Shown in pieces: positions 6,342-36,088 of a DNA stretch of 64,000 nt. Below the pieces are notes generated by a model. The model worked only from the letters and a program-made list of their open reading frames with translations. It had not been told where the DNA came from and did no database searches. The first letter of the stretch is position 1, and the number at the start of each line of letters is the position of its first letter. Source of the stretch: an uncultured Planctomycetota bacterium (GTDB lineage Bacteria > Planctomycetota > Phycisphaerae > SM23-33); the NCBI GenBank assembly GCA_903892515.1, contig CAITIS010000067.1:65347-129346 (forward strand), in the 5' to 3' direction. The position numbers and the translations under genes are program-made.

Positions 6342-7814
6342 ATGGCAGATCAAAGTCGATGGCGAGATGGATTCGGGCCCGATGAGGTCTCTCAACGCGT
6401 CCGGCCAGAGCACACCAACGAGTACCTGAACAACCCGCACAAGGGCCTGGTCACCTTCCAGCGCTTTGCCGGCGACCCACTCATGCAGTACCTGTTCGAC
6501 CAGGGCCGCGGCACGTGGGGCGTTCCGGATGGGGCCGAGGAAATGGAGGCCGAGGGCGCCCAGTACTTCATCAACGGCCAGCCGGCGGTGGGCTCGCAGC
6601 GTCCAATCGGCCCGGTGCCGGATGAAACCAACTACCTGCCCTCTCGCGTGGCGTACTGCCGCTGGGCGTGGCAACTGCTGGAGCCGCAGCGCGGCAAGAT
6701 TCGTTTCGACATCGTTGACAAGGCGCTGGAGACGGCCGCCGCGCGCGGCCAGACGCTGCAACTTCGCACCCAGCCGTTCATCAGCCCGAGCCTGTACCCC
6801 GTGCCGGAGTGGTACTGGCAGAACGGGGCAAAGCGCGACGCCGCCGCGTCCCGGCCCCACTACGCTATTCCCGACCACAACGACCCGCACTATCTCGAAT
6901 ACTGGGGCAACCACATCCGCGCCTTGGGCCAGCGATACGACGGCGACGAGCGGCTGGAAAGCTTCGACCTGTCCTACGGCGGCGGGTGCGGCGAGGGCGG
7001 CGGCAATTGCACGAGCGAAACGGCCGCCCGACTGGCCGACATCTATATGGACAGCTTTCGCCGCACGCCGCTGCTGACCCAACTTGGGACGGAAGGCGGC
7101 CGATATGCCGCACAGCAGCGGCAAGGCCGGATCGGGTGGCGGGCCGACTGCCTCGGCGACGTCCACACCGACAGCAACGGCACGGTGCCTGATGGCCTGA
7201 ACTGGAATCACATGTACGACTCGTATCCAGCCGAGGTGGACCGGTGCGGAGTGACGGATGCGTGGCGGCACGCGCCGGTGGCGTGGGAAACTGGCTGGTC
7301 GGTAGCGTACTGGCACGCCCAGGGCTGGGATGTCGATTGGATCCTGGACCAGGCCTTGAAGTACCACCCCTCGACGCTCAACGTCAAGAGCATGTACATT
7401 CCGCCTGACTTGATGGACAGGATGCGGGCGTTCTGTCAGCGGATGGGCTACTGGCTGCACTTGCACCAGATGGTCCTGCCGCTGGAGGGCCGGGCCGGGC
7501 AGGAGTGCCCGCTGGCCATGGTGATCGACAACAAGGGCGTCGCGCCGCTGTACCGGCCATATCGGCTGGCGCTGCGGTTCTCGCAGGGCAAGACGCACCG
7601 CGTGGTCTGCCTGCGCCAGGATGTGCGGCAACTGCTGCCCGACCTGACGCACTTCCGGGAGAGCTTCATATTCCCCTGGGGCCTGCAAGCGGGCCAGGCC
7701 AAGGTCTCGCTGGGCATCGTCGATTCCCGCGAAAGCCCCGTCGTCCGCCTGGCCATCAAGGCCATCGACGCCGAACTCTGGCACCCGCTGACCAGCGTGG
7801 ACGTGCTGGCCTAA
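6342..7814 (+). CDS. glycoside-hydrolase-like TIM-barrel protein (GH42 / DUF4874-DUF4832-like; paralog of 57454..58842)
   Basis: 490 aa. Shares NPHKG..TFQ.F.GD, YCRW.W.L.EP..GK..F and a C-terminal GW(D)(V/L)D block with the 57454 ORF. The W..EP..G..F pattern resembles GH TIM-barrel N-termini. No signal peptide. Confidence 0.6.
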   Translation: MADQSRWRDGFGPDEVSQRVRPEHTNEYLNNPHKGLVTFQRFAGDPLMQYLFDQGRGTWGVPDGAEEMEAEGAQYFINGQPAVGSQRPIGPVPDETNYLPSRVAYCRWAWQLLEPQRGKIRFDIVDKALETAAARGQTLQLRTQPFISPSLYPVPEWYWQNGAKRDAAASRPHYAIPDHNDPHYLEYWGNHIRALGQRYDGDERLESFDLSYGGGCGEGGGNCTSETAARLADIYMDSFRRTPLLTQLGTEGGRYAAQQRQGRIGWRADCLGDVHTDSNGTVPDGLNWNHMYDSYPAEVDRCGVTDAWRHAPVAWETGWSVAYWHAQGWDVDWILDQALKYHPSTLNVKSMYIPPDLMDRMRAFCQRMGYWLHLHQMVLPLEGRAGQECPLAMVIDNKGVAPLYRPYRLALRFSQGKTHRVVCLRQDVRQLLPDLTHFRESFIFPWGLQAGQAKVSLGIVDSRESPVVRLAIKAIDAELWHPLTSVDVLA

Positions 7815-8908
7815 CGGCGTGCCAATTTGGCGACGGGTGGCTCACATGCCGGCGGGTGCCATGGTCAGGCCGTCGTCTGGCCTGGCCATGCATGGAGGCA
7901 AACAACGCGGCAGGTAGGGCGGGCACTGCCCGCCGCCTTCCAGGCGACGCCAGATATCCGACCCGTCGGCCCATGGGGCGTTGCTGTTCTGACCGGCGAC
8001 GCCCGCCTTGCCCCAGCTTCGCATATGCAGCGTCTAACATGGTCACGCGAACAGCGTGACCATGCCACCCAAGTCGAGTCATGGCACCCATCTCTCAGCC
8101 GAGGGCGGCTGAGCCACGAAGACGGGGAGGAAAGCGGCGCGGGCAAGTTGGGTGCCATGGTCGCCTCGTCCAGCGGGCAAGTTGGGTGCCGTGGCAGCGG
8201 CGTCCAGCGGCCACGTTGCCTCGTCCTGCCCCCGCACCCCGCACGGCCGCGCAGGTCGCGACGGGGATCGATTCTAATAAATGAAGATCGCCGGCCGGGA
8301 GAATCGGACAGGCCGGGTGATCCTGTGCGCAGAATGGCATGCACCGGCCCTTCTATAGAAGCACCTCCGGCCGAGCGGGCGCGGGGGAGAAAGTTTAAAA
8401 AGTGAAGAGAGATCCGGCCTGGCCCAAGACGGTAATCAGACCGCTGCGCGGATGTGCGCATGGGGTATGCGCATGGTCAAATGCGGACAGTCAGGGGCGT
8501 GGCATTTCCGCAAGAACGTGCCGGCCAGAATGATGCGGCGCTTTGCCTGCGTGCAGAAACGTTGCAAACGGTTCCGTTTCGTTCCGAATCGTTCCGTTTG
8601 GTTCCGTTTCGTTCCGTTTGGTTCCGCTTGGTTCCGCTTGGTTCCCGATGGTTCCCAATGGTTTTGTTGGGTGCCGTGGCCGCGGCGTCCAGCGGCCACG
8701 CGTCCCCCGGCTAACCTGCTGCGTCCAAACATGGTCACGCGAACAGCGCGACCATGCCACCCACTACGTTGACAGTTCCACGGCCCCACTCCGCGCGGCG
8801 TCTGAACATGGCCAGGCCTAGACAGCGGCCTGACCATGCCACCCAATTCCACAGCCGAGGGCGGCTGTGCTACGCGTCTGCCCGCGCCGCCGCACTCGTG
8901 CTACGCGT
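7815..8908. repeat. ~1.1-kb non-coding region packed with short hairpin repeats, duplicated ~36-bp units and a 10-bp tandem array
   Basis: Hairpins CATGGTCA(N)TGACCATGCCACCC at ~7860, 8038, 8730 and 8807. ~36-bp GTTGGGTGCC(A/G)TGG..GTCCAGCGG units at ~8140, ~8176 and ~8662. CAGCCGAGGGCGGCTG at 8096 and 8846. GTGCTACGCGTCT twice at ~8862-8905. Confidence 0.8.
8566..8660. repeat. tandem 10-bp repeat (GTTCCGTTTC / GTTCCGTTTG / GTTCCGCTTG ...), ~10 units
   Basis: Directly visible periodic array of gttccgtttc, gttccgaatc, gttccgtttg, gttccgcttg and gttcccgatg units. Confidence 0.85.
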
Positions 8909-25706: not shown

Positions 25707-26957
25707 ATGAGTATCGTGGTAATGAAATTCGGCGGGTCCAGTGTGGCCGACGCGGACAAGATTCGCGCCTGTTCCGCCCGGGCCATCGAAGCACGCAAAG
25801 CCGGCCACAAGGTCGTCATGGTCGTATCGGCCATGGGCGACACGACGGACGACCTCGTCGCACTGGCCAAGCAAATTACGTCCACCCCGTCCAAGCGCGA
25901 GTACGATCAATTGCTCGCCACCGGTGAGCAGGTGACGATTTCCCTGGTCGCGATGGCGATGGAGGCCATGGGCCAGCCCGCCATCAGTTTCACGGCCGGT
26001 CAGATCGGCATGGTCACCGACGACAAGCACACCAAGGCCCGCATCAAGCGCATCGACGTGCAGAAAGTCCTGCGCGAACTCAAGTCCGGCAAGATCGTCA
26101 TCGTGGCCGGCTTCCAGGGCGTGACCGAGGACGGCGCCGTCACCACGCTGGGACGCGGCGGCTCGAATGTGACGCTGGTGGCCATAGCCGCGGCCCTCAA
26201 GGCCGATATGTGCGAGAACTACACCGACGTCGATGGCATCTTCACGGCCGACCCGCGGCTGGTGCCCAACGCCCGCAAAATCGACCAGGTCAGCTACGAT
26301 GAGATGCTCGAACTGGCCTCGCTGGGCGCCAACGTGCTGCACAACCGGGCGGTAGAGTTTGCCAAGAAGTACAATGTGCCGATTCATGTTCGCAGCAGTT
26401 TGAACCATTCCAAAGGAACGATGATCGTGGCGGAATCAGAGGAAATGGAGCGTATCGTCGTCAGCGGGGCCGCGTTGAAGAAGCAGTTGGCCCGCGTGAG
26501 CCTGCGTAACGTCCCGGACCGGCCGGGCATGGCGGCCAGGATTTTTCACACGATCGGGGCGGCCGACATCGTCGTGGATGACATCATCCAGACCGAGACG
26601 ACGAACAAGCTAGCGGCCGTTTCGTTCACGGTGGACATGGGCGACATCACCGACGTCAAGGCCGTATGCGAGAAGCTGTGCAGCCAGCACGCCGGCATGA
26701 CGGTTGAATTCAAGACCGACCTGGCCAAGGTCAGCGTGGTGGGCGTGGGCATGCGCGTCCACACGGGCGTGGCCCAGCGGATGTTCGCCGCCCTGGCCGG
26801 CGCTGGCATCAACATCCACAACATCACCACCAGCGAGATCAAGATCTCCTGCATCATCGACCAGGTCCAAGGCCCCATAGCGCTGCGCCTGATCCACGAC
26901 GCCTTCGACCTGGGCAAGACTCCTGGGAAAGCCAAGGCCAAGAAAGGTAGGAAGTAG
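25707..26957 (+). CDS. lysC: aspartate kinase (with tandem ACT domains)
   Basis: MSIVVMKFGGSSVAD... amino-acid-kinase fold plus two ACT repeats. 416 aa. Confidence 0.9.
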   Translation: MSIVVMKFGGSSVADADKIRACSARAIEARKAGHKVVMVVSAMGDTTDDLVALAKQITSTPSKREYDQLLATGEQVTISLVAMAMEAMGQPAISFTAGQIGMVTDDKHTKARIKRIDVQKVLRELKSGKIVIVAGFQGVTEDGAVTTLGRGGSNVTLVAIAAALKADMCENYTDVDGIFTADPRLVPNARKIDQVSYDEMLELASLGANVLHNRAVEFAKKYNVPIHVRSSLNHSKGTMIVAESEEMERIVVSGAALKKQLARVSLRNVPDRPGMAARIFHTIGAADIVVDDIIQTETTNKLAAVSFTVDMGDITDVKAVCEKLCSQHAGMTVEFKTDLAKVSVVGVGMRVHTGVAQRMFAALAGAGINIHNITTSEIKISCIIDQVQGPIALRLIHDAFDLGKTPGKAKAKKGRK

Positions 26958-27006
26958 ACCTGCGCGGTCAAGGAACATGTTTTGCCAATGAAAGGCAACG
27001 ATAGCC

Positions 27007-27504
27007 TTGCGGGACTACGTCGAAAAGCACCCGGAGACAGTGCAGGACCTGGAGTTGGCGAGCGAGGATCGGCTCTGGGAAGGTCTTGAACTGCTGGCTT
27101 CTGGACAAACAGCAGGCGGCATGTACTTGCTGGGTTACGTTGCCGAGATGGTATTGAAGAACGCGTGCTTTCTGTTTGAAGGAGCTCGTCCCTCCGACCC
27201 AATATCTGCTCGGCTCGGACCCATGCGGGCTTTCGGCAAGTCTCATTTTCCGACAATCGACAGGGAGAATTACCACAGCCTTGTCTTCTGGTATCATGCA
27301 CTGCTTCATAAACGAAACTTGGCAGGACGCTCGCTGCCAAGTCCCACGGCGCGCCAGTTGGGGCGCAGGGTCGCCAGCATTCACAGCATGTGGGTCGTAG
27401 CCATGCGATATTATCCGGCTGCACTTCTTCTCCCAAGTCACGCAGCGACGATCTACAATGATGTGATCTGGCTGTACGATCATCGTCTCCAACTGAGGAT
27501 GTAA
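27007..27504 (+). CDS. hypothetical protein in lower-GC cassette (possible HEPN-like; carries RAFGKSH, an Rx5H motif)
   Basis: 165 aa. No recognised family. Alpha-helical character. R-x5-H motif. TTG start is tentative. Local GC is visibly lower than flanks. Confidence 0.45.
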   Translation: MRDYVEKHPETVQDLELASEDRLWEGLELLASGQTAGGMYLLGYVAEMVLKNACFLFEGARPSDPISARLGPMRAFGKSHFPTIDRENYHSLVFWYHALLHKRNLAGRSLPSPTARQLGRRVASIHSMWVVAMRYYPAALLLPSHAATIYNDVIWLYDHRLQLRM

Positions 27505-27505
27505 C

Positions 27506-27826
27506 ATGCCCATCAAGCATCGCCTGCAACGTACTTTGCCTTCCACCGCAGCAGAACTTACTCGGCAGCTCATGCACGAATGGACAGAGCCCAGCAGCGC
27601 GGGGCAGCCGCTAATCGTGCTTGAAGGTGAGAGGGGGCAGCCCCAGCATGTCTACGTCATCTGGGACGAGTGGAAAGGCCTCGACCAGAGAGAGAGGTCT
27701 GAGATCATCATGGACGTTGTTGAGCAACTGAGCGGCCCACAGGGTATGCCCGACTTGTCCCTAGTGACAGTGGCGATGGGATTGACTATCGAAGAAGCGA
27801 AGCGGATGGGCATTGATGTGTCCTAG
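27506..27826 (+). CDS. hypothetical protein, tightly coupled partner of 27007..27504
   Basis: 106 aa. ATG lies 1 nt after the upstream stop. No recognised family. Confidence 0.45.
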   Translation: MPIKHRLQRTLPSTAAELTRQLMHEWTEPSSAGQPLIVLEGERGQPQHVYVIWDEWKGLDQRERSEIIMDVVEQLSGPQGMPDLSLVTVAMGLTIEEAKRMGIDVS

Positions 27827-27934
27827 CCACTCAACTCCCGTGCGGTTGTGAAGACTGGGAATACATGCTAATGCCTTCTGGTTCCCGCCTTTCGCCGGTC
27901 GCCGGTTTGTGATGTTGCTTTGCCTGTCGATGTA

Positions 27935-28636
27935 ATGGCACACGACACGCCCGACCTTCCTTCACTCTTTCGCATCACGCCGGCCGATGAATACCTCATG
28001 CCACGATTCAACATCCCTTTGCCGATGAGCGGTCCGAGCCGGCGACGGCGCTACATGGGCCGGCACGCCCGCATCGGCGGCGTGGCTGGGCTGATCGTGA
28101 TGGCGCTGTTCCTGCTGGATCGGCAAGGCGTGTTTGGCCGGACCACCGGCCCGGACGTGCAGCGGTACGACAGCAAGTCATGCCAGGTCATCCACGTCAC
28201 CGACGGCGACACCGTGGACGTGGATATCCCCGACGGTGCCAAGTCCAGCACCCGCATCCGCCTGCTGGGCATGGACACGCCAGAGACGGTCAAGCCCGAC
28301 ACGCCCGTGCAGTACTTCGGTCCCGAGGCCAGCCAGTACACCAAGAGCCACCTGCTGCGCAAGACCGTTACGCTGCAATTGGACAAGAGCCGCTCCGCCC
28401 GCGACAAGTACGGCCGATTGCTGGCGTATATCATGATCGACGGCAAAAACTACAACCGCCAGATCGTGGCCGAGGGCTACGCCTACGCCGACCCGCGCTT
28501 CCCCCACCCGCTGCTCAAGGACTTCAAAGCCGCCCAGGAACAAGCCAAGGCCGCCGGCGCAGGCCTGTGGCGCGGCGTACAGGACAAGGACCTGCCCTAC
28601 TACTATCAGGGCAAACTCAAGCTGCCGGGACGATGA
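27935..28636 (+). CDS. thermonuclease (staphylococcal-nuclease-like, SNase) family protein with N-terminal membrane anchor
   Basis: VIHVTDGDTVDV..RIRLLGMDTPE...GRLLAYI...NY.R..V..GYA SNase motif set. TM segment IGGVAGLIVMALFLL. Start ambiguous (27920 TTG, 27935 ATG). Confidence 0.75.
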   Translation: MAHDTPDLPSLFRITPADEYLMPRFNIPLPMSGPSRRRRYMGRHARIGGVAGLIVMALFLLDRQGVFGRTTGPDVQRYDSKSCQVIHVTDGDTVDVDIPDGAKSSTRIRLLGMDTPETVKPDTPVQYFGPEASQYTKSHLLRKTVTLQLDKSRSARDKYGRLLAYIMIDGKNYNRQIVAEGYAYADPRFPHPLLKDFKAAQEQAKAAGAGLWRGVQDKDLPYYYQGKLKLPGR

Positions 28637-31046: not shown

Positions 31047-32264
31047 ATGTACGAAGACTATTACGGCAATTTGATTACCTCCCTGGCGATGGCCAACGAC
31101 AAGAAGATCGTCCTGCTGGTGATGGACGGCCTGGGCGACGCCCCCAACGCCACCGGCAAGACGCCACTGCAAGCCGCCATCAAGCCCAACCTCGACGCCC
31201 TGGCGGGACAATCGGCCTGCGGGCTGCTCGTGCCAGTCGCTACAGCCGTCACGCCAGGCTCGGGCCCGGGCCACCTGGGCCTGTTTGGCTACGACCCGCT
31301 GATATACCAGGTCGGGCGCGGCGTGCTCAGCGCGCTGGGCGTGGAATTCCCGCTGGAAGACCGCGACGTGGCCGCCCGGTTGAACTTCTGCACCATCGAC
31401 AAGAGCGGCAACATCGCCGACCGCCGCGCTGGCCGGATTCCCGACGAGGAGAACCGCCGCGTACTGGAGAAGATTCGCAAGGGCTTGAAGACTCCTGCGG
31501 GCGTAGAGGTCTTCTTTACGACTGAGGCTGAACACCGCGCCGTGCTGGTGCTGCGTGAGAACAATCTCGACGACAACATCGGCGACACCGACCCGCAGCA
31601 CACGGGCGTCCCGCCGCTGAAGGCCAACCGCGCCCCGTACGACAAGAGCCCCACGGCCGCTATCGCCGCCAATATCATCGAGCAGGTGCAGAAGATGCTG
31701 GCCGATGAGCCCAAGGCCAACATGATCGTCGCCCGCGGCTTTGCCAAGCACCCGGCCTGGCCGAAGTTCCCCGACCGCTACAAGGTCAAGCCGGCCGCCG
31801 TGGCGGGCTACCCGATGTATCGCGGCGTGGCCAAGTTGGTGGGCATTCCCGTGGTGGCCAAGCCCACGACCGCCCAGGATGTCTGCGCCGAAGCCGCCAA
31901 GGCAATGGCCGAGCACAGCTTCGTCTTTGCCCATTTCAAGTACACCGACAAGACCGGCGAAGACGGCGACTATGACGGCAAGGTCAAGCGGATCGAGGAG
32001 ATGGACAAGGCCCTGCCGACGCTGCTGGCGGCCAAGCCCGACGTGCTGATTATCACCGGCGATCACTCCACGCCGTGCGTGTTGAAGAGCCACTCCTGGC
32101 ATCCCGTGCCGGTGCTGATGAAGGCCCCGTGGCTGCGTGGCGGGCAAGTGGCGAAGTTCGACGAGGTCAACTGCCGCGGCGGCGAGATCGGCACCATCCC
32201 CAGCCGTGAACTGCTGCCTCTAGCCATGGCCCACGCCGGCAAGCTGGAGAAGTTCGGCGCGTAG
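31047..32264 (+). CDS. apgM: 2,3-bisphosphoglycerate-independent phosphoglycerate mutase, archaeal-type (ApgM family)
   Basis: LLVMDGLGD ... GHLGLFGYDP ... ITGDHSTP motifs of the ApgM/metalloenzyme family. Start tentative (MYEDYYGNL); upstream ATGs overlap a palindromic repeat. Confidence 0.7.
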   Translation: MYEDYYGNLITSLAMANDKKIVLLVMDGLGDAPNATGKTPLQAAIKPNLDALAGQSACGLLVPVATAVTPGSGPGHLGLFGYDPLIYQVGRGVLSALGVEFPLEDRDVAARLNFCTIDKSGNIADRRAGRIPDEENRRVLEKIRKGLKTPAGVEVFFTTEAEHRAVLVLRENNLDDNIGDTDPQHTGVPPLKANRAPYDKSPTAAIAANIIEQVQKMLADEPKANMIVARGFAKHPAWPKFPDRYKVKPAAVAGYPMYRGVAKLVGIPVVAKPTTAQDVCAEAAKAMAEHSFVFAHFKYTDKTGEDGDYDGKVKRIEEMDKALPTLLAAKPDVLIITGDHSTPCVLKSHSWHPVPVLMKAPWLRGGQVAKFDEVNCRGGEIGTIPSRELLPLAMAHAGKLEKFGA

Positions 32265-32292
32265 CCGTCGCCTCGGAAGTGTCAGAAACATC

Positions 32293-32319
32293 AGCAGGGA
32301 TGCATGGGATTCAAGGGAT
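32293..32319. repeat. 27-bp direct repeat, copy 1 (AGCAGGGATGCATGGGATTCAAGGGAT)
   Basis: Exact copy at 32882..32908. Flanks a ~560-bp lower-GC segment. Confidence 0.85.
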
Positions 32320-32427
32320 AGGAATGATTTTCGATTCTCGATTTGAGTTCAATGCCTTGGGAAATAGCGCAGGCCTCTGGCGCTTCCGGAGGTCTAAGGA
32401 CAGACCGCAGGAATAGGAGGGTCTACG

Positions 32428-32883
32428 ATGTCTTGGATGGCTTGGAAGATGTTGGACTCGTGCCTGATGGTGGCCATGCTGCCGTTGCTGGTCGTAAACA
32501 TAGTGCTGAACGCGCGAGCCAGGCAGGCGATGAAGCGCGAGGGATCCGCTGCCAAGGCCTGGCCTGAGACACGCTTCTGGAAGACATTACGCCGATTTGT
32601 GATGGTGTTGTTTCTTGCCTCGTTCGGGTGGGCTATCTTCTGGGATTACAGGTTGTCACGAGACTTACCGACTACACCTGATGCAGGCGCAGGCCGCACT
32701 CATGAACTCCACGTTGGCCACGCCTTGCATTACGCGACTGAGCAGGAGTACAGTCGGTCTAAGTCGTCCGAAGCGACCCTTTGGGCTTCCGGCATTGTCG
32801 TTCTGGCTTACAACGCAGCGAGAGAGCTTAGCAAGAAGCGCAAAAGCCCACAGAGCGGCGAGTTGAACGTCAACAAAAACTAG
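32428..32883 (+). CDS. small two-TM membrane protein of unknown function (inside direct-repeat-flanked insert)
   Basis: 151 aa. Good SD (AGGAGGG then ATG). Two hydrophobic helices then a polar Lys-rich tail. Lower GC than surroundings. Confidence 0.5.
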   Translation: MSWMAWKMLDSCLMVAMLPLLVVNIVLNARARQAMKREGSAAKAWPETRFWKTLRRFVMVLFLASFGWAIFWDYRLSRDLPTTPDAGAGRTHELHVGHALHYATEQEYSRSKSSEATLWASGIVVLAYNAARELSKKRKSPQSGELNVNKN

Positions 32884-32908
32884 CAGGGATGCATGGGATT
32901 CAAGGGAT
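32882..32908. repeat. 27-bp direct repeat, copy 2
   Basis: Identical to 32293..32319. Confidence 0.85.
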
Positions 32909-32967
32909 TTAACTCCATCCCATACATCCCTGCTGTGTTTTCCAGATTCCGACTTCCCGATTCCAGG

Positions 32968-34179
32968 CTACTTCGTGTACTCGCCCTTGTTCCGCGGGCC
33001 CGTCAGGCCTTCCCACTTCGGGTCGAGCCTGGCCACGCCGTACCACGCGCGGGACATGTACAGGGCGTCCAGCACCGAGCAGGCCACCATGGCCTCGGCC
33101 ACCGGGTAGATGCGCGGGCAGATGCTGATGTCGCGGCGGGTGACGGCGGCCAGTTTCTTGGCCTGCATCGTCTTCAAGTCCACGGTGTCCTGCTGCTTGG
33201 AGATCGTCGGCGTGGCCTTGACGTACATGCGTATGATCAGGTCTTCGCCGTTGCTCATGCCGCCCGAGAACCCGCCACTGTGGTTGGTCTGGAAGCGGAC
33301 CTTGCCGTCTTCCAGTACGGGCTGGTCGTTCCATTCGCTGCCCAGCGTGCGAGCGGCCGCGGCGCCAGAGCCGAACTCCAGCCCGGTCATCGCCCCGATG
33401 CTGCACAGGCCGTGCGCGATCGTGGCCTTGAGCTTGTCAAAGACCGGCTCGCCCAGGGCCGCCGGCACACCTCGGGCGATGATCTCGATGGTCCCGCCGG
33501 CCGTGTCGCCCGCATCGCGGACTTTCAGCAAGTCAGCGATCATGACCTTGGCCTGGTCAAGATCGCAGCAGTTCAGGTCGTTCTTGCGATAGTTGGCCTT
33601 GAGTTCCTCGAAGGTCATCGTGCCTTCGGCCACGCTCCTGCCCTTGATGCCGTGACTCTCAATGACGTGGGCGAGGATCTCGATGTTCTCGCGGGCGAGA
33701 ATCTGCTTAGCCACAGCGCCGCCGGCCACCCGGCCCACCGTCTCACGTCCACTGGCCCGGCCAGCGCCGCACCAGTCGCCGTGCTCGCCATACTTGTACA
33801 GGAAGTTCAGTTCGGCATGGCCGGGGCGAACGACATCTTTCACGTCGCGGTACTGCTGGACGTGAATGTCCTGCGTATCGACGTTGCGGACGAGCAGCCC
33901 GACGGGCGCGCCGGTCGTGATGCCTTCCTGCAAGCCGGCGACGACCTCGACGATGTCGGTTTCCTTGCGCGGGCTGTCGAGCTTGCTCTGGCCGGGGCGG
34001 CGTTTGAACAGTTCGTCCTGGATTCTCTTGACGTCGAGCTTGATGCCCGGCGGCACGCCGTTGACGATGCAAAAGAGCGAGCCGCCCCAGTTGCCCGGGT
34101 CCTCGGCCGTCGCGTGCCAGCCGTAGCTCTCGCCGCACGTAGTGATCTGGAAAATCCGTCCAAACGTGTTGCCCAGCAT
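32968..34179 (-). CDS. aroC: chorismate synthase
   Basis: MLGNTFGRIFQITTCGESYG ... full chorismate synthase layout (403 aa). Confidence 0.9.
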   Translation of the reverse strand: MLGNTFGRIFQITTCGESYGWHATAEDPGNWGGSLFCIVNGVPPGIKLDVKRIQDELFKRRPGQSKLDSPRKETDIVEVVAGLQEGITTGAPVGLLVRNVDTQDIHVQQYRDVKDVVRPGHAELNFLYKYGEHGDWCGAGRASGRETVGRVAGGAVAKQILARENIEILAHVIESHGIKGRSVAEGTMTFEELKANYRKNDLNCCDLDQAKVMIADLLKVRDAGDTAGGTIEIIARGVPAALGEPVFDKLKATIAHGLCSIGAMTGLEFGSGAAAARTLGSEWNDQPVLEDGKVRFQTNHSGGFSGGMSNGEDLIIRMYVKATPTISKQQDTVDLKTMQAKKLAAVTRRDISICPRIYPVAEAMVACSVLDALYMSRAWYGVARLDPKWEGLTGPRNKGEYTK

Positions 34180-34265: not shown

Positions 34266-34487
34266 CTAGGCTTCAAACAGCTCTCGTGGCAGCCGACTCT
34301 GCCGGATGATTGCCAGCAGCGCACCCATCCGCAATTCCCTGTGATCCGGAACAGGCACGGTGATGGTTGTTCCGCCAGTCTTCTGCTGCATGGTGACGTG
34401 GCTGCCTCGCTGCCGAATCTGCTGGAATCCCTGGGCCAAGAGGATTGCCATGACCTCTTTTCCGGAAAGGATCCGCAGCCTAGCCAA
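34266..34487 (-). CDS. hicA: HicA-family toxin (mRNA interferase)
   Basis: 73 aa. GKEVMAILLAQGFQQIRQRGSHVTMQ matches the HicA dsRBD-like fold motif with catalytic His in GSH. Confidence 0.8.
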   Translation of the reverse strand: MARLRILSGKEVMAILLAQGFQQIRQRGSHVTMQQKTGGTTITVPVPDHRELRMGALLAIIRQSRLPRELFEA

Positions 34488-34716
34488 TCCTCACCTCAAG
34501 GGGCGAAACGACCACGTCGCCGTGCAGTCGGTCTCGGATTTCCTGAGCTGACGCCGTTTCCAGGAATAGCTCGACGGCCTCACGCAGGTTTTCGCGAGCT
34601 TCATCCAGCGTGTCTCCCTGGCTGGCGACATCCAATTCCGGACACAAGGCCACATACCCGTCGCCTTCGCGGTGAATCGCAGCCGTGAACGTTCGAGTAG
34701 CCATAACTAGCCTCAC
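34480..34716 (-). CDS. hicB: HicB-family antitoxin
   Basis: 78 aa. YVALCPELDVASQGDTLDEARENLREAVELFLE is a HicB N-terminal RNase-H-like motif. Overlaps hicA by 8 nt. Confidence 0.75.
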   Translation of the reverse strand: MRLVMATRTFTAAIHREGDGYVALCPELDVASQGDTLDEARENLREAVELFLETASAQEIRDRLHGDVVVSPLEVRIG

Positions 34717-34792: not shown

Positions 34793-36088
34793 CTAAATCT
34801 TCTGCATCTCGCAGCCCAGCAGCGTCATCTGCTCGATGAAGTTGGGAAAGGTCTTCTTGACACACTCGATGTCGCTGATGTGCGTCTGGCCACTGGCGAC
34901 CATGCCGGCCAGGCTCAGCGTCATTACCATGCGATGATCGGCCCGGCTGTTGAGGTGCGCCCCGTGCAGCCGGCTGCCACGAATCACCAGACCATCGGGC
35001 CGCTCCTGCACGTCGGCGCCCATTGCCCGCAGGGCCTTGTGCATCTCGGCGATGCGGTCGCACTCCTTCTGCCGGCAGATGGCGGCGTCGTACAGTTCGG
35101 TCGTCCCTTCGGCGCAGGCCCCGACGACGGCCAGCAGCATGAACTGATCGACGAAGTCGTTGCAGTCGATCCGCATGCCCTTGAGTTGGCTGGTGCGGGC
35201 GATCACGCCATCAGGCAGGATCTCCAGGTTCGCGCCCATCTGCCGCAGGACATCCAGAACCAGCCGGTCGCCCTGCACGTCGCGGTAGTCCACGCCCTGC
35301 ACGTGCACCTCGCTGTCGGGGCACAGCAGACCCGCCACGATCGGGTACATGGCCGCCGACCAGTCGCCGGGTATGCGGGCGTCAAAGCCCTTCCAGCGGC
35401 TTCCGCCGGCCAACCGGTATCGAGCGAAGTCCTCGTTCTCCAACTTGATGCCGCACTGATCCAGCCAGTACAGCGTCACGCCGATCCAGGGCTTTTCGCC
35501 CGGATTGTGTACGATCAGTTCCGTCGGCGCCTCGGCCATGCTGGCGGCGATGAGCATCGCGCTGACTGGCTGGGAATCGGCCCCGTCCAGTTCCGCCCGC
35601 CCGCCCTTGAGCCGGCCTCGAACGACTACCGGCGCATGACCGTCATTCTTGGTCGAATACGCGCTGGCCCCCAGCGCGTTCATCGCGTCGAGCAGCGCCT
35701 GGCAGGGACGAATATGCCGGATGGACTCGTCGCCCGTCAGGATGGTCGTGCCGTCGCACAGCCCGGCCAAGGCCGTAAAGAAGCGAAAGATGATGCCGCT
35801 GTTGCCGCAGTTGATCACGTCATCGGGAATCCGCAGCTCCCCGGCGGTGCCCGTGATCTGCCAGCAATCGTGAGCTTCGGGCTCGATCCTGGCCCCGAAC
35901 ATCTCCAGGGCCTCGGTCCCACGCATCCAATCGGCCGAGACGGCTGGGGACTCAATGCGGCTGGTCCCCTCCGCCAGCGCAGCCATAATGAGCGCTCTAA
36001 ACGAGTGAGACTTGTTGGGGGGAATCTTGATAGCCCCCCGCAGCGACCGCGATGACTGCACAGATACGTTCATTTTGTCCTCAGCCAA
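34793..36088 (-). CDS. aroA: 3-phosphoshikimate 1-carboxyvinyltransferase (EPSP synthase)
   Basis: GAIKIPPNKSHSFRALIMAALAEG ... LVIRG motifs. 431 aa (start may be the internal MNVSV). Confidence 0.9.
   Translation of the reverse strand: MAEDKMNVSVQSSRSLRGAIKIPPNKSHSFRALIMAALAEGTSRIESPAVSADWMRGTEALEMFGARIEPEAHDCWQITGTAGELRIPDDVINCGNSGIIFRFFTALAGLCDGTTILTGDESIRHIRPCQALLDAMNALGASAYSTKNDGHAPVVVRGRLKGGRAELDGADSQPVSAMLIAASMAEAPTELIVHNPGEKPWIGVTLYWLDQCGIKLENEDFARYRLAGGSRWKGFDARIPGDWSAAMYPIVAGLLCPDSEVHVQGVDYRDVQGDRLVLDVLRQMGANLEILPDGVIARTSQLKGMRIDCNDFVDQFMLLAVVGACAEGTTELYDAAICRQKECDRIAEMHKALRAMGADVQERPDGLVIRGSRLHGAHLNSRADHRMVMTLSLAGMVASGQTHISDIECVKKTFPNFIEQMTLLGCEMQKI

Follow-up and report, generated by a model that had tools for sequence, protein, structure and literature searches.

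Among the effectors of bacterial conflict and defence, HEPN toxins form a major class. In HEPN-MNT dyads, which pair a HEPN protein with a minimal nucleotidyltransferase (MNT), the MNT gene lies 5' of the HEPN gene (PMC3710099). Within the HEPN-T clade, proteins of the AF0298/2hsb type keep the basic residue of the HEPN motif and have lost its histidine, and a second, strongly conserved histidine is located N-terminal to the motif (Anantharaman et al., PMC3710099). This upstream histidine has been proposed to form an alternative RNase site, and in several PF05168 proteins the histidine of the motif is replaced by an aspartate (PMC3710099). With regard to mobility, restriction-modification (RM) systems are known for 'insertion with long target duplication', which leaves repeats of 46-423 bp, involves no mobility genes and has an unknown mechanism (Furuta et al. 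2010, PMC2853133). Here we describe a cassette of two open reading frames, ORF1 and ORF2, located at positions 27007 to 27826 of a 64,000-nt stretch of DNA from an uncultured Planctomycetota bacterium (contig CAITIS010000067.1, positions 65,347 to 129,346; hereafter the window, whose numbering is used for coordinates unless another locus is named). Taken as a whole, the observations are best explained by a mobile HEPN toxin-antitoxin-like module, serving addiction or defence and spread by host recombination, which we regard as the probable reading.

ORF1 (27007..27504, forward strand) starts with TTG and encodes a divergent HEPN-fold protein of 165 aa, a putative RNase-type toxin. ORF2 (27506..27826, forward strand) starts with ATG and encodes its partner of 106 aa, a putative antitoxin from a family without annotation. 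The junction between them reads TAA, one base, ATG, exactly as described in a first-pass annotation of the window, and the lower GC content noted there is equally present: it amounts to 0.55-0.58 over positions ~26950-27900, against 0.62-0.67 in the flanks, and at third codon positions (GC3) to 0.61 in ORF1 and 0.69 in ORF2, against 0.81-0.86 in six neighbouring genes. The insert, 0.87 kb in size, lies 49 nt past the stop codon of lysC, and the pair is co-oriented with this gene. Neither protein has a match in Pfam, NCBIfam or PADLOC, which agrees with the earlier statement that no family is recognisable and leaves standing the suggestion that the module is undescribed. All the relatives retrieved by a word-indexed search, 18 clusters for ORF1 and 33 for ORF2, are unnamed metagenomic proteins. 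An exhaustive profile search extends the ORF1 family to 774 clusters at E<=0.001 and 476 at E<=1e-10, the 774 clusters being representatives at 50% identity. Between cassettes, both ORFs are under purifying selection, with nonsynonymous differences (pN) of 0.15-0.37 and synonymous differences (pS) of 0.66-0.92, the latter being saturated. Judging from these conserved families and from pN values far below pS, ORF1 and ORF2 are real genes.

The AlphaFold2 model of ORF1, obtained from an alignment of 17 sequences, is all-helical, with a pLDDT of 87 and a pTM of 0.84. A Foldseek search of the PDB places classical HEPN domains in the first seven ranks (2q00, 1wol, 2hsb, 4nqf and 1ufb among them), with probabilities of 0.98-1.0 and TM-scores of up to 0.73 on the target, and weaker matches further down the list include 1o3u, the HEPN domain of sacsin and AbiV (9bj6). 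The ORF1 family profile found no HEPN domain among PDB sequences. PF05168 is matched by seven of 52 diverse family members, with a best E-value of 2.2e-5. As modelled, ORF1 has a HEPN fold, which is what the first-pass annotation had proposed from its helical N-terminus.

The same annotation had pointed to an R-x5-H motif, RAFGKSH, as found in HEPN RNases. This heptapeptide is literally present (R74-H80), but it cannot carry the catalytic meaning given to it: it lies in a variable stretch of lower confidence and is not conserved in alignments of 20 and 52 sequences. As neither residue belongs to the invariant or nearly invariant columns, its occurrence is no more than expected by chance. The residues that are invariant among the 52 diverse sequences are G43, L50, K51, H90, R134, Y135 and W155, and the motifs YLLGYxxEMxLK, YHSL and WxVxMRYYPD emerge from the 20- and 52-sequence alignments. 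R134 and H90 match the pattern of the AF0298-type HEPN-T proteins, with a basic residue that is retained and a conserved histidine upstream. By its predicted fold and by this residue pattern, ORF1 is a divergent new branch of the HEPN-T clade that is invisible to Pfam. It most likely acts as an RNase, with R134 and the upstream H90 taking the place of the Rx4-6H motif.

ORF2 was modelled with a pLDDT of 78 and shows the order alpha-beta-beta-alpha-beta-alpha. Its invariant residues are L18, P35, W53, W56, R64, T94 and A98, and it bears the motif (A)MGLTxxEA. None of 35 diverse members and 91 database homologues has a Pfam domain or an informative name; the ORF2 profile found nothing real among PDB sequences and nothing in a viral library. 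The structural matches in the PDB are weak and mixed. The best one is a putative nucleotidyltransferase from Sulfolobus (2rff, E 0.027), followed by BolA-like proteins, to which the resemblance is weak and at the level of the fold in Foldseek. With ORF1 falling by fold into the HEPN-T clade, which is associated with MNTs, the match to 2rff favours a degenerate HEPN-MNT system of type VII, in which ORF2 would be a minimal nucleotidyltransferase that inactivates ORF1 by nucleotidylation. However, 2rff superposes with a root-mean-square deviation of 13 Å and a TM-score of 0.4, and BolA-like folds score equally. Moreover, PF01909 is found in none of the 35 + 91 members, the GS...DxD signature is absent, a comparison with a true MNT using hhalign gives a probability of 0.09%, and the gene order is reversed. 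ORF2 was rejected as an MNT on these grounds, and we consider a degenerate HEPN-MNT system extremely unlikely. The true MNT used in the hhalign comparison is the gene adjoining the cassette of locus L123 (5228-5509 of that locus), a genuine minimal nucleotidyltransferase (PF01909, 93 aa) which lies directly 3' of the cassette in this relative only and is unrelated to ORF2. Judged by its sequences, ORF2 represents a new family of small alpha/beta proteins. Gemmataceae and Phycisphaerae-type loci contain a longer ORF2 (~165-183 aa), which is extended at its C-terminus by a conserved segment and is still paired with a HEPN ORF1 (L039 6507-7007, L040 945-1475 and L042 6106-6612; P0051, P0202-P0249).

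An ORF2 homologue follows ORF1 in every complete locus, that is, in ~45 loci drawn from metagenomes and species-representative genomes, down to ~23% identity, and the HEPN gene is 5' of its partner in all of them. The pairing that had been noticed in the window is therefore a property of the family, as the search of other genomes demonstrates. In intact pairs, ORF1 and ORF2 are separated by -1 to +9 nt, the exceptions being two very divergent loci, with 15 and 20 nt. In the window, ORF2, which starts 1 nt after the ORF1 stop codon, is probably translationally coupled to ORF1. The decayed copies show an asymmetry: ORF1 is disrupted by stop codons or frameshifts next to an intact ORF2 in L013, L023, L029 and L128, a solitary ORF2 fragment remains besides the intact pair in L031, and only L017 is reversed. 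This 4:1 bias, with ORF1 decaying before ORF2, points the way that a harmful ORF1 would predict, within small numbers and with possible assembly errors in the decayed copies. Architecture, distribution and decay bias together suggest a toxin-antitoxin or abortive-infection role.

In Planctomycetota, the carriers belong to the Phycisphaerae, Tepidisphaerales, Planctomycetales and Gemmataceae, and in Armatimonadota to the Chthonomonadaceae, Capsulimonadaceae and Fimbriimonadaceae. The cassette is also present in one metagenome-assembled genome (MAG) of Polyangiaceae and in one 'Janthinobacterium' MAG. The contig of the latter (L030, JBPBQB010000304.1, labelled Janthinobacterium lividum) is probably mis-binned, because its gap 3' end, its cassette type and its junction match those of the Armatimonadota loci L005 and L029. 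In each of the 42 loci measured, the cassette is poorer in GC than its flanks. It occurs in over 20 distinct neighbourhoods, and the eight cassettes that are nearest to that of the window (54-75% identity) are found in eight different ones. The upstream gene, which is usually a core gene, is co-oriented in ~28 of 34 loci and lies at a distance of 0-112 nt. Among these 34 loci, it is gap in ten cases (plus L030, where the gene end only is present), gltB in three (where the pair sits between gltB and the gene that follows), rho in two and pgk in two. The C-terminal sequences identify lysC, comM, a trpE/pabB-like gene, smpB, a thiolase-like gene, an ATP-sulfurylase-like gene and an SDR gene in one locus each. 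The foreign GC content, the variety of neighbourhoods, the occurrence in two phyla and the long flanking repeats described below bear out the horizontal acquisition put forward in the first-pass annotation: on this sequence evidence, the pair is horizontally acquired and mobile across two phyla.

The first-pass annotation had also taken the adjacent SNase-like gene (27920..28636) as an argument for the module. The gene does encode a genuine SNase (PF00565, 83 bits), but lysC or SNase adjoins the cassette only in contigs identical to the window, and no SNase is found near the cassette in the 45 other loci. The adjacency is thus coincidental, and the SNase was rejected as a component of the system.

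The most unusual aspect of the cassette, which had been missed previously, is the signature that its insertion leaves at the 3' ends of housekeeping genes. Direct repeats of 19-365 bp, far above shuffled controls, flank the cassette in at least seven independent cases, and in six of these they duplicate the 3' end of the host gene. The repeat comprises 129 bp of comM in L001-L003, from three samples, 365 bp of rho in L012 and 49 bp of a thiolase-like gene in L018. In gap, it comprises 108, 97 and 107 bp in L005a, L029 and L030, respectively, which have a common junction, 170 bp in L031, and 19 bp of gap and its terminator in L005b. The repeat of L014, with 47 bp, is non-coding. Where the repeat is coding, the host gene's intact 3' end forms its left copy, which runs up to the stop codon of that gene. 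In six of nine repeat-bearing cassettes, the right copy begins 1-11 nt past the ORF2 stop codon. The unit between the repeats consists of the two ORFs and at most 90 nt. The positions of the junctions differ even within gap (about -60, -108 and -170).

In the comM repeat of L001, the first 85 bp are identical in both copies, and all seven differences are located in the last 44 bp and are synonymous, a pattern whose probability under random decay we estimate at ~1e-4. As all the differences are synonymous and confined to this end, the gene end adjoining the cassette appears to come from another functional allele. Stacked insertions are found at gap. In L005 (6437-8353; also in L006), two divergent HEPN pairs are arranged in series after gap, each followed by a gap 3'-end fragment, and in L031 (5983-8047) the intact pair after gap is followed ~1 kb downstream by the solitary ORF2 fragment; the newest copy in these stacks is the one that adjoins gap. 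L029 is syntenic with L005 and does not contain the second pair, which provides a comparison of an occupied and an empty site, and in this comparison the 3' half of the terminator is duplicated. The leader of L031 resembles the gap terminator of another genome. An assembly artefact was rejected as an unlikely source of the repeats, since the same structures are found in independent samples (L001, L002 and L003; L005 and L006) and in chromosome-scale assemblies.

A further feature of the gap loci is a hairpin located just upstream of a GGAGTT ribosome-binding site in the leaders of L029 (5918-5970) and L030 (128-176). In L005, where the stretch concerned is 6419-6436, the corresponding hairpin and GGAGTT are found at 6440-6482, within an ORF1 annotated with 181 aa. 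The stem sequences of these hairpins differ and their pairing is kept; they may represent a carried-along gap terminator or a regulatory stem.

The duplicated gene end of L001, with its foreign-looking proximal copy, is the classical signature of a tyrosine-recombinase island, and comM is a known island target. The cassette could accordingly be regarded as a cis-mobilisable remnant, i.e. as cargo between att-like repeats that was left behind, or is moved in trans, by the integrase of a larger element targeting gene 3' ends. However, none of the annotated flanks contains an integrase, and none of the cassettes contains a transposase, an integrase or another mobility gene. Alignments of the cassette ends reveal no conserved termini, inverted repeats or att-like cores, the similarity between cassettes beginning at most ~30 nt upstream of ORF1, and the insert of the window is not framed by inverted repeats. 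The repeats vary in length from 19 to 365 bp, their junctions vary even within a single gene and share no core sequence, and the targets are many different genes. These observations make an integrase-borne remnant improbable.

The compactness of the unit, with its right junction so close to the ORF2 stop codon and its left junction at the host stop codon, together with the repeated polar stacking at gap and a relocation that is fast relative to divergence, would also be compatible with a self-mobilising element, in which ORF1, ORF2 or both promote insertion beside the stop codons of conserved genes, as a new kind of transposition or homing without a known DNA-breaking domain. Nevertheless, the only activities known for the HEPN fold are the cleavage and the binding of RNA (PMC3710099), a recombinase would find no conserved termini, and most loci have no flanking repeats. 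In addition, a repeat that ends at the stop codon is expected anyway from coding homology between donor and recipient. We consider such self-mobilisation very improbable. In its boldest form, the two-gene unit would be a minimal mobile element that has no transposase, integrase or conserved ends, and whose HEPN-like protein, partner or both are active in the insertion past housekeeping stop codons, duplicating up to 365 bp of the gene 3' end and stacking at gap. A weaker version would invoke an undescribed host pathway by which RM systems move as well. To this proposal, too, we attach little credence.

According to the preferred reading, a mobile toxin-antitoxin-like module spread by host recombination, ORF1 would be the predicted RNase toxin of the HEPN-T clade, using R134 and H90, and ORF2 would be its cognate protein inhibitor, made by translational coupling. 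The module would be promoter-poor, the pair of the window being read through from lysC. Devoid of mobility machinery, it would spread by host recombination and land directly past the stop codons of conserved housekeeping genes. In this process, the cassette would travel with the conserved 3' end of a gene, which would act as a homology arm in Campbell-type or homology-facilitated illegitimate recombination. The displaced native gene end would stay downstream of the cassette and later erode, as in L029 and presumably in the window. The homology-arm route is suggested by the repeats that end at the stop codon, by the synonymous-only differences in L001 and by the resemblance of the L031 leader to a foreign gap terminator. 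Since most repeat pairs are nearly identical, this route calls for very close donors or for gene conversion. Alternatively, the target may truly have undergone a long duplication, with an exchange of alleles afterwards, and, by analogy, both routes would fit the insertion with long target duplication known for RM systems. The RNase activity, the roles of toxin and antitoxin, the co-transcription with lysC and the recombination route are the parts of this mechanism that we infer.

Several observations weigh against this mechanism. At the sequence level, the support for a HEPN domain is borderline: ORF1 of the window has no PF05168 hit at E<=1, and P0068 scores 20.5 bits against PF05168, where the cutoff is 22, over residues 20-61, which correspond to helices 1-2 only. 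The canonical Rx4-6H motif is absent, with no histidine within 4-6 residues after the invariant R134, and ORF1 of the window exhibits A138 (MRYYPAAL) where close relatives exhibit an aspartate (MRYYPD). Among HEPN domains that lack the motif, many are non-catalytic (PMC3710099). In L017, an in-frame stop codon interrupts ORF2 next to an apparently intact ORF1, which should not be tolerated with a potent toxin. The window copy has no flanking repeat that exceeds shuffled controls, and a metagenome search through the SNase gene found no empty lysC-SNase site, but only distant SNases without synteny. Most repeat pairs are nearly identical, which a simple Campbell integration of a diverged allele would not produce unless gene conversion were added. 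Finally, the position of the pair after gap in 11 Armatimonadota loci could also reflect a long vertical residence.

The lack of the canonical motif, in a superfamily whose motif-less domains are often considered non-catalytic, and the ORF2 stop codon tolerated by L017 would be accounted for by a non-toxic accessory module, in which an inactive HEPN domain binds RNA or a nucleotide with ORF2 as its cofactor, and modulates the expression or stability of the upstream operon mRNA or a stress response. This would also agree with the location of the pair, which is nearly always co-oriented right after metabolic genes and within operons (for instance between gap and pgk, or between gltB and the next gene). 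However, the genes that host the pair have no function in common (lysC, comM, rho, smpB, gap, gltB, glycosidases and others). The patchy distribution, the foreign GC content in all loci, the stacked insertions and the decaying copies also argue against an accessory function, as does the invariance of R134 and H90, the residues expected in the proposed alternative HEPN active site. For these reasons, a non-toxic module appears unlikely.

In the window, the gene upstream of the cassette is lysC (25707..26957, forward strand, GC3 0.86), which encodes an aspartate kinase of 416 aa, with AA_kinase and ACT domains on the identical contig L008; it constitutes the host-gene context and lies outside the mobile unit. 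The leader of 49 nt between the lysC stop codon and the ORF1 start (26958..27006, forward strand) contains AAAGG at 26991-26995, a possible ribosome-binding site. Alignments indicate that relatives of ORF1 use an ATG two codons upstream, the ancestral start; as the window has ATA at this position (27001-27003), its ORF1 must start at the TTG (27007). This start codon may reduce the translation of the toxin in the window copy. No terminator-like or promoter-like site was found between lysC and ORF1 in the window sequence, which fits expression by read-through, and the pair is probably transcribed from lysC in this way. On the other side, alignments with other cassettes lose their similarity precisely at the stop codon of ORF2, so the spacer of 93 nt that precedes the SNase gene (27827..27919, forward strand) derives from the host or from the junction. 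Downstream of the window cassette, no displaced fragment of lysC can be detected, and Rfam has no match in the cassette region, spacer included. The SNase-like gene has a native composition (GC3 0.84) and encodes a hydrophobic N-terminal segment. It matches the PADLOC candidate model 'SNc+LTD' (E 1e-30) through its nuclease domain only.

An antisense ORF of 201 aa (26968-27573, reverse strand) covers the whole of ORF1, and the antisense frame stays open in four of six close cassettes. It was rejected as a real gene and is considered spurious, since it is interrupted in L011 and L004, whereas the sense ORF1 is conserved and has a confident predicted fold. On the identical ENA contig L008, a gene caller nonetheless annotated a 181-aa antisense gene (7415-7960) in place of ORF1 and shortened ORF2 to 84 aa. 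Such a call, with ORF1 overlooked in favour of the opposite strand, is a practical warning for annotation.

Other features of the neighbourhood were also noted. Two paralogous cofactor-independent phosphoglycerate-mutase-like genes (PF01676/PF10143; 24364-25551 and 30984-32264) flank the block that comprises lysC, the cassette, the SNase gene and a membrane protein gene. A second patch of low GC content (32200-32950, 0.54-0.58) contains an ORF of 151 aa (32428-32883, forward strand) without a Pfam family, which sits between a phosphoglycerate-mutase-like gene and the chorismate synthase gene, and this patch may be another foreign insert. A second toxin-antitoxin pair is located on the reverse strand at 34266-34704. 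It consists of HicA (34266-34451, PF07927, 48 bits, with the cutoff at 27) together with a HicB/UPF0150-like partner that scores below threshold (34480-34704), and it is wedged between the genes for chorismate synthase (32968-34179) and EPSP synthase (34793-36088). The HicAB-like pair repeats the pattern of a toxin-antitoxin pair inserted between housekeeping genes of one operon.

The HEPN-T branch and its partner family are new. They amount to a large HEPN family, with its 774 clusters, that is missed by the current Pfam, NCBIfam and PADLOC models, and to a wholly unannotated partner family. The family is centred on Planctomycetota and Armatimonadota, in which defence and addiction systems are poorly charted. 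The movement of toxin-antitoxin and RM modules without mobility genes is an old open question, and the family offers natural snapshots of it: fresh long duplications, a foreign gene end with synonymous differences only, stacked and decaying copies and an empty site, which make the recombination route testable. For the mobility signature, RM systems provide the only precedent.

With regard to these RM systems (Nobusato et al. 2000; Furuta et al. 2010), several likenesses are observed. Both kinds of module would be selfish units of the addiction type; they move without mobility genes, are bounded by long direct repeats of variable length that duplicate the target, have a lower GC content than the host and sometimes overlap the 3' end of a gene. 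Target-duplicating repeats of more than 30 bp, the criterion of Furuta et al., are found in L001, L005a, L012, L014, L018, L029, L030 and L031. In contrast to RM systems, the HEPN pair offers no DNA endonuclease for making breaks, its left repeat ends at the host stop codon, its targets are mostly conserved housekeeping genes, and it forms polar stacks at gap. As far as the literature is searchable, citations of insertion with long target duplication concern RM systems only and not classical toxin-antitoxin pairs. A looser analogy exists with the orphan-module arrays of Rhs/CdiA and with integron cassette arrays, where new modules enter at one fixed end, here the gap 3' end, and older cassettes are pushed downstream, decaying with the displaced fragment of the upstream gene. 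Unlike these arrays, the cassette has no attC/attI sites and no integrase, and its upstream gene encodes a housekeeping enzyme, not a polymorphic toxin.

Among HEPN proteins, ORF1 is comparable to the AF0298-type members of the HEPN-T clade (PF05168; 2hsb, 1wol, 1ufb, 1o3u). It shares with them the predicted helical fold, a borderline sequence match over helices 1-2 and the deviation of the motif, in which the arginine is kept, the motif histidine is lost and a conserved histidine lies upstream. The differences are that ORF1 is ~40 residues longer, with an inserted helix (67-80) and a loop, that the protein of the window is below Pfam detection, and that the partner is not an MNT and is encoded downstream rather than upstream. 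HepT-MntA (SO_3166/SO_3165), of type VII, is likewise a small, tightly linked two-gene HEPN module that is abundant and horizontally mobile. However, HepT uses an Rx4HxY motif and belongs to the HEPN-M clade (DUF86), and its antitoxin gene lies 5' of the toxin gene and encodes an active nucleotidyltransferase, whereas the partner in the cassette has no nucleotidyltransferase signature and is encoded 3'. Judging from the identity of the partner and from the gene order, the cassette should not be filed as HEPN-MNT.

Toxin-antitoxin systems of a generic type II-like kind share with the cassette two small, co-directional, tightly spaced and co-occurring genes, a patchy horizontal distribution and variable contexts. 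A toxin-first gene order is also found in RnlAB, HigBA and HicAB. In the anti-phage HEPN RNase toxins RnlA-RnlB, LsoA-LsoB and AbiV, the HEPN gene likewise comes first and is followed by a small unrelated partner, and a defence role is a candidate function for the cassette as well. These systems have no sequence relationship to the cassette, which has no PADLOC match, and RnlA is a large multidomain protein. By analogy of gene order and architecture, the cassette would nevertheless work most like toxin-first HEPN systems such as RnlAB.

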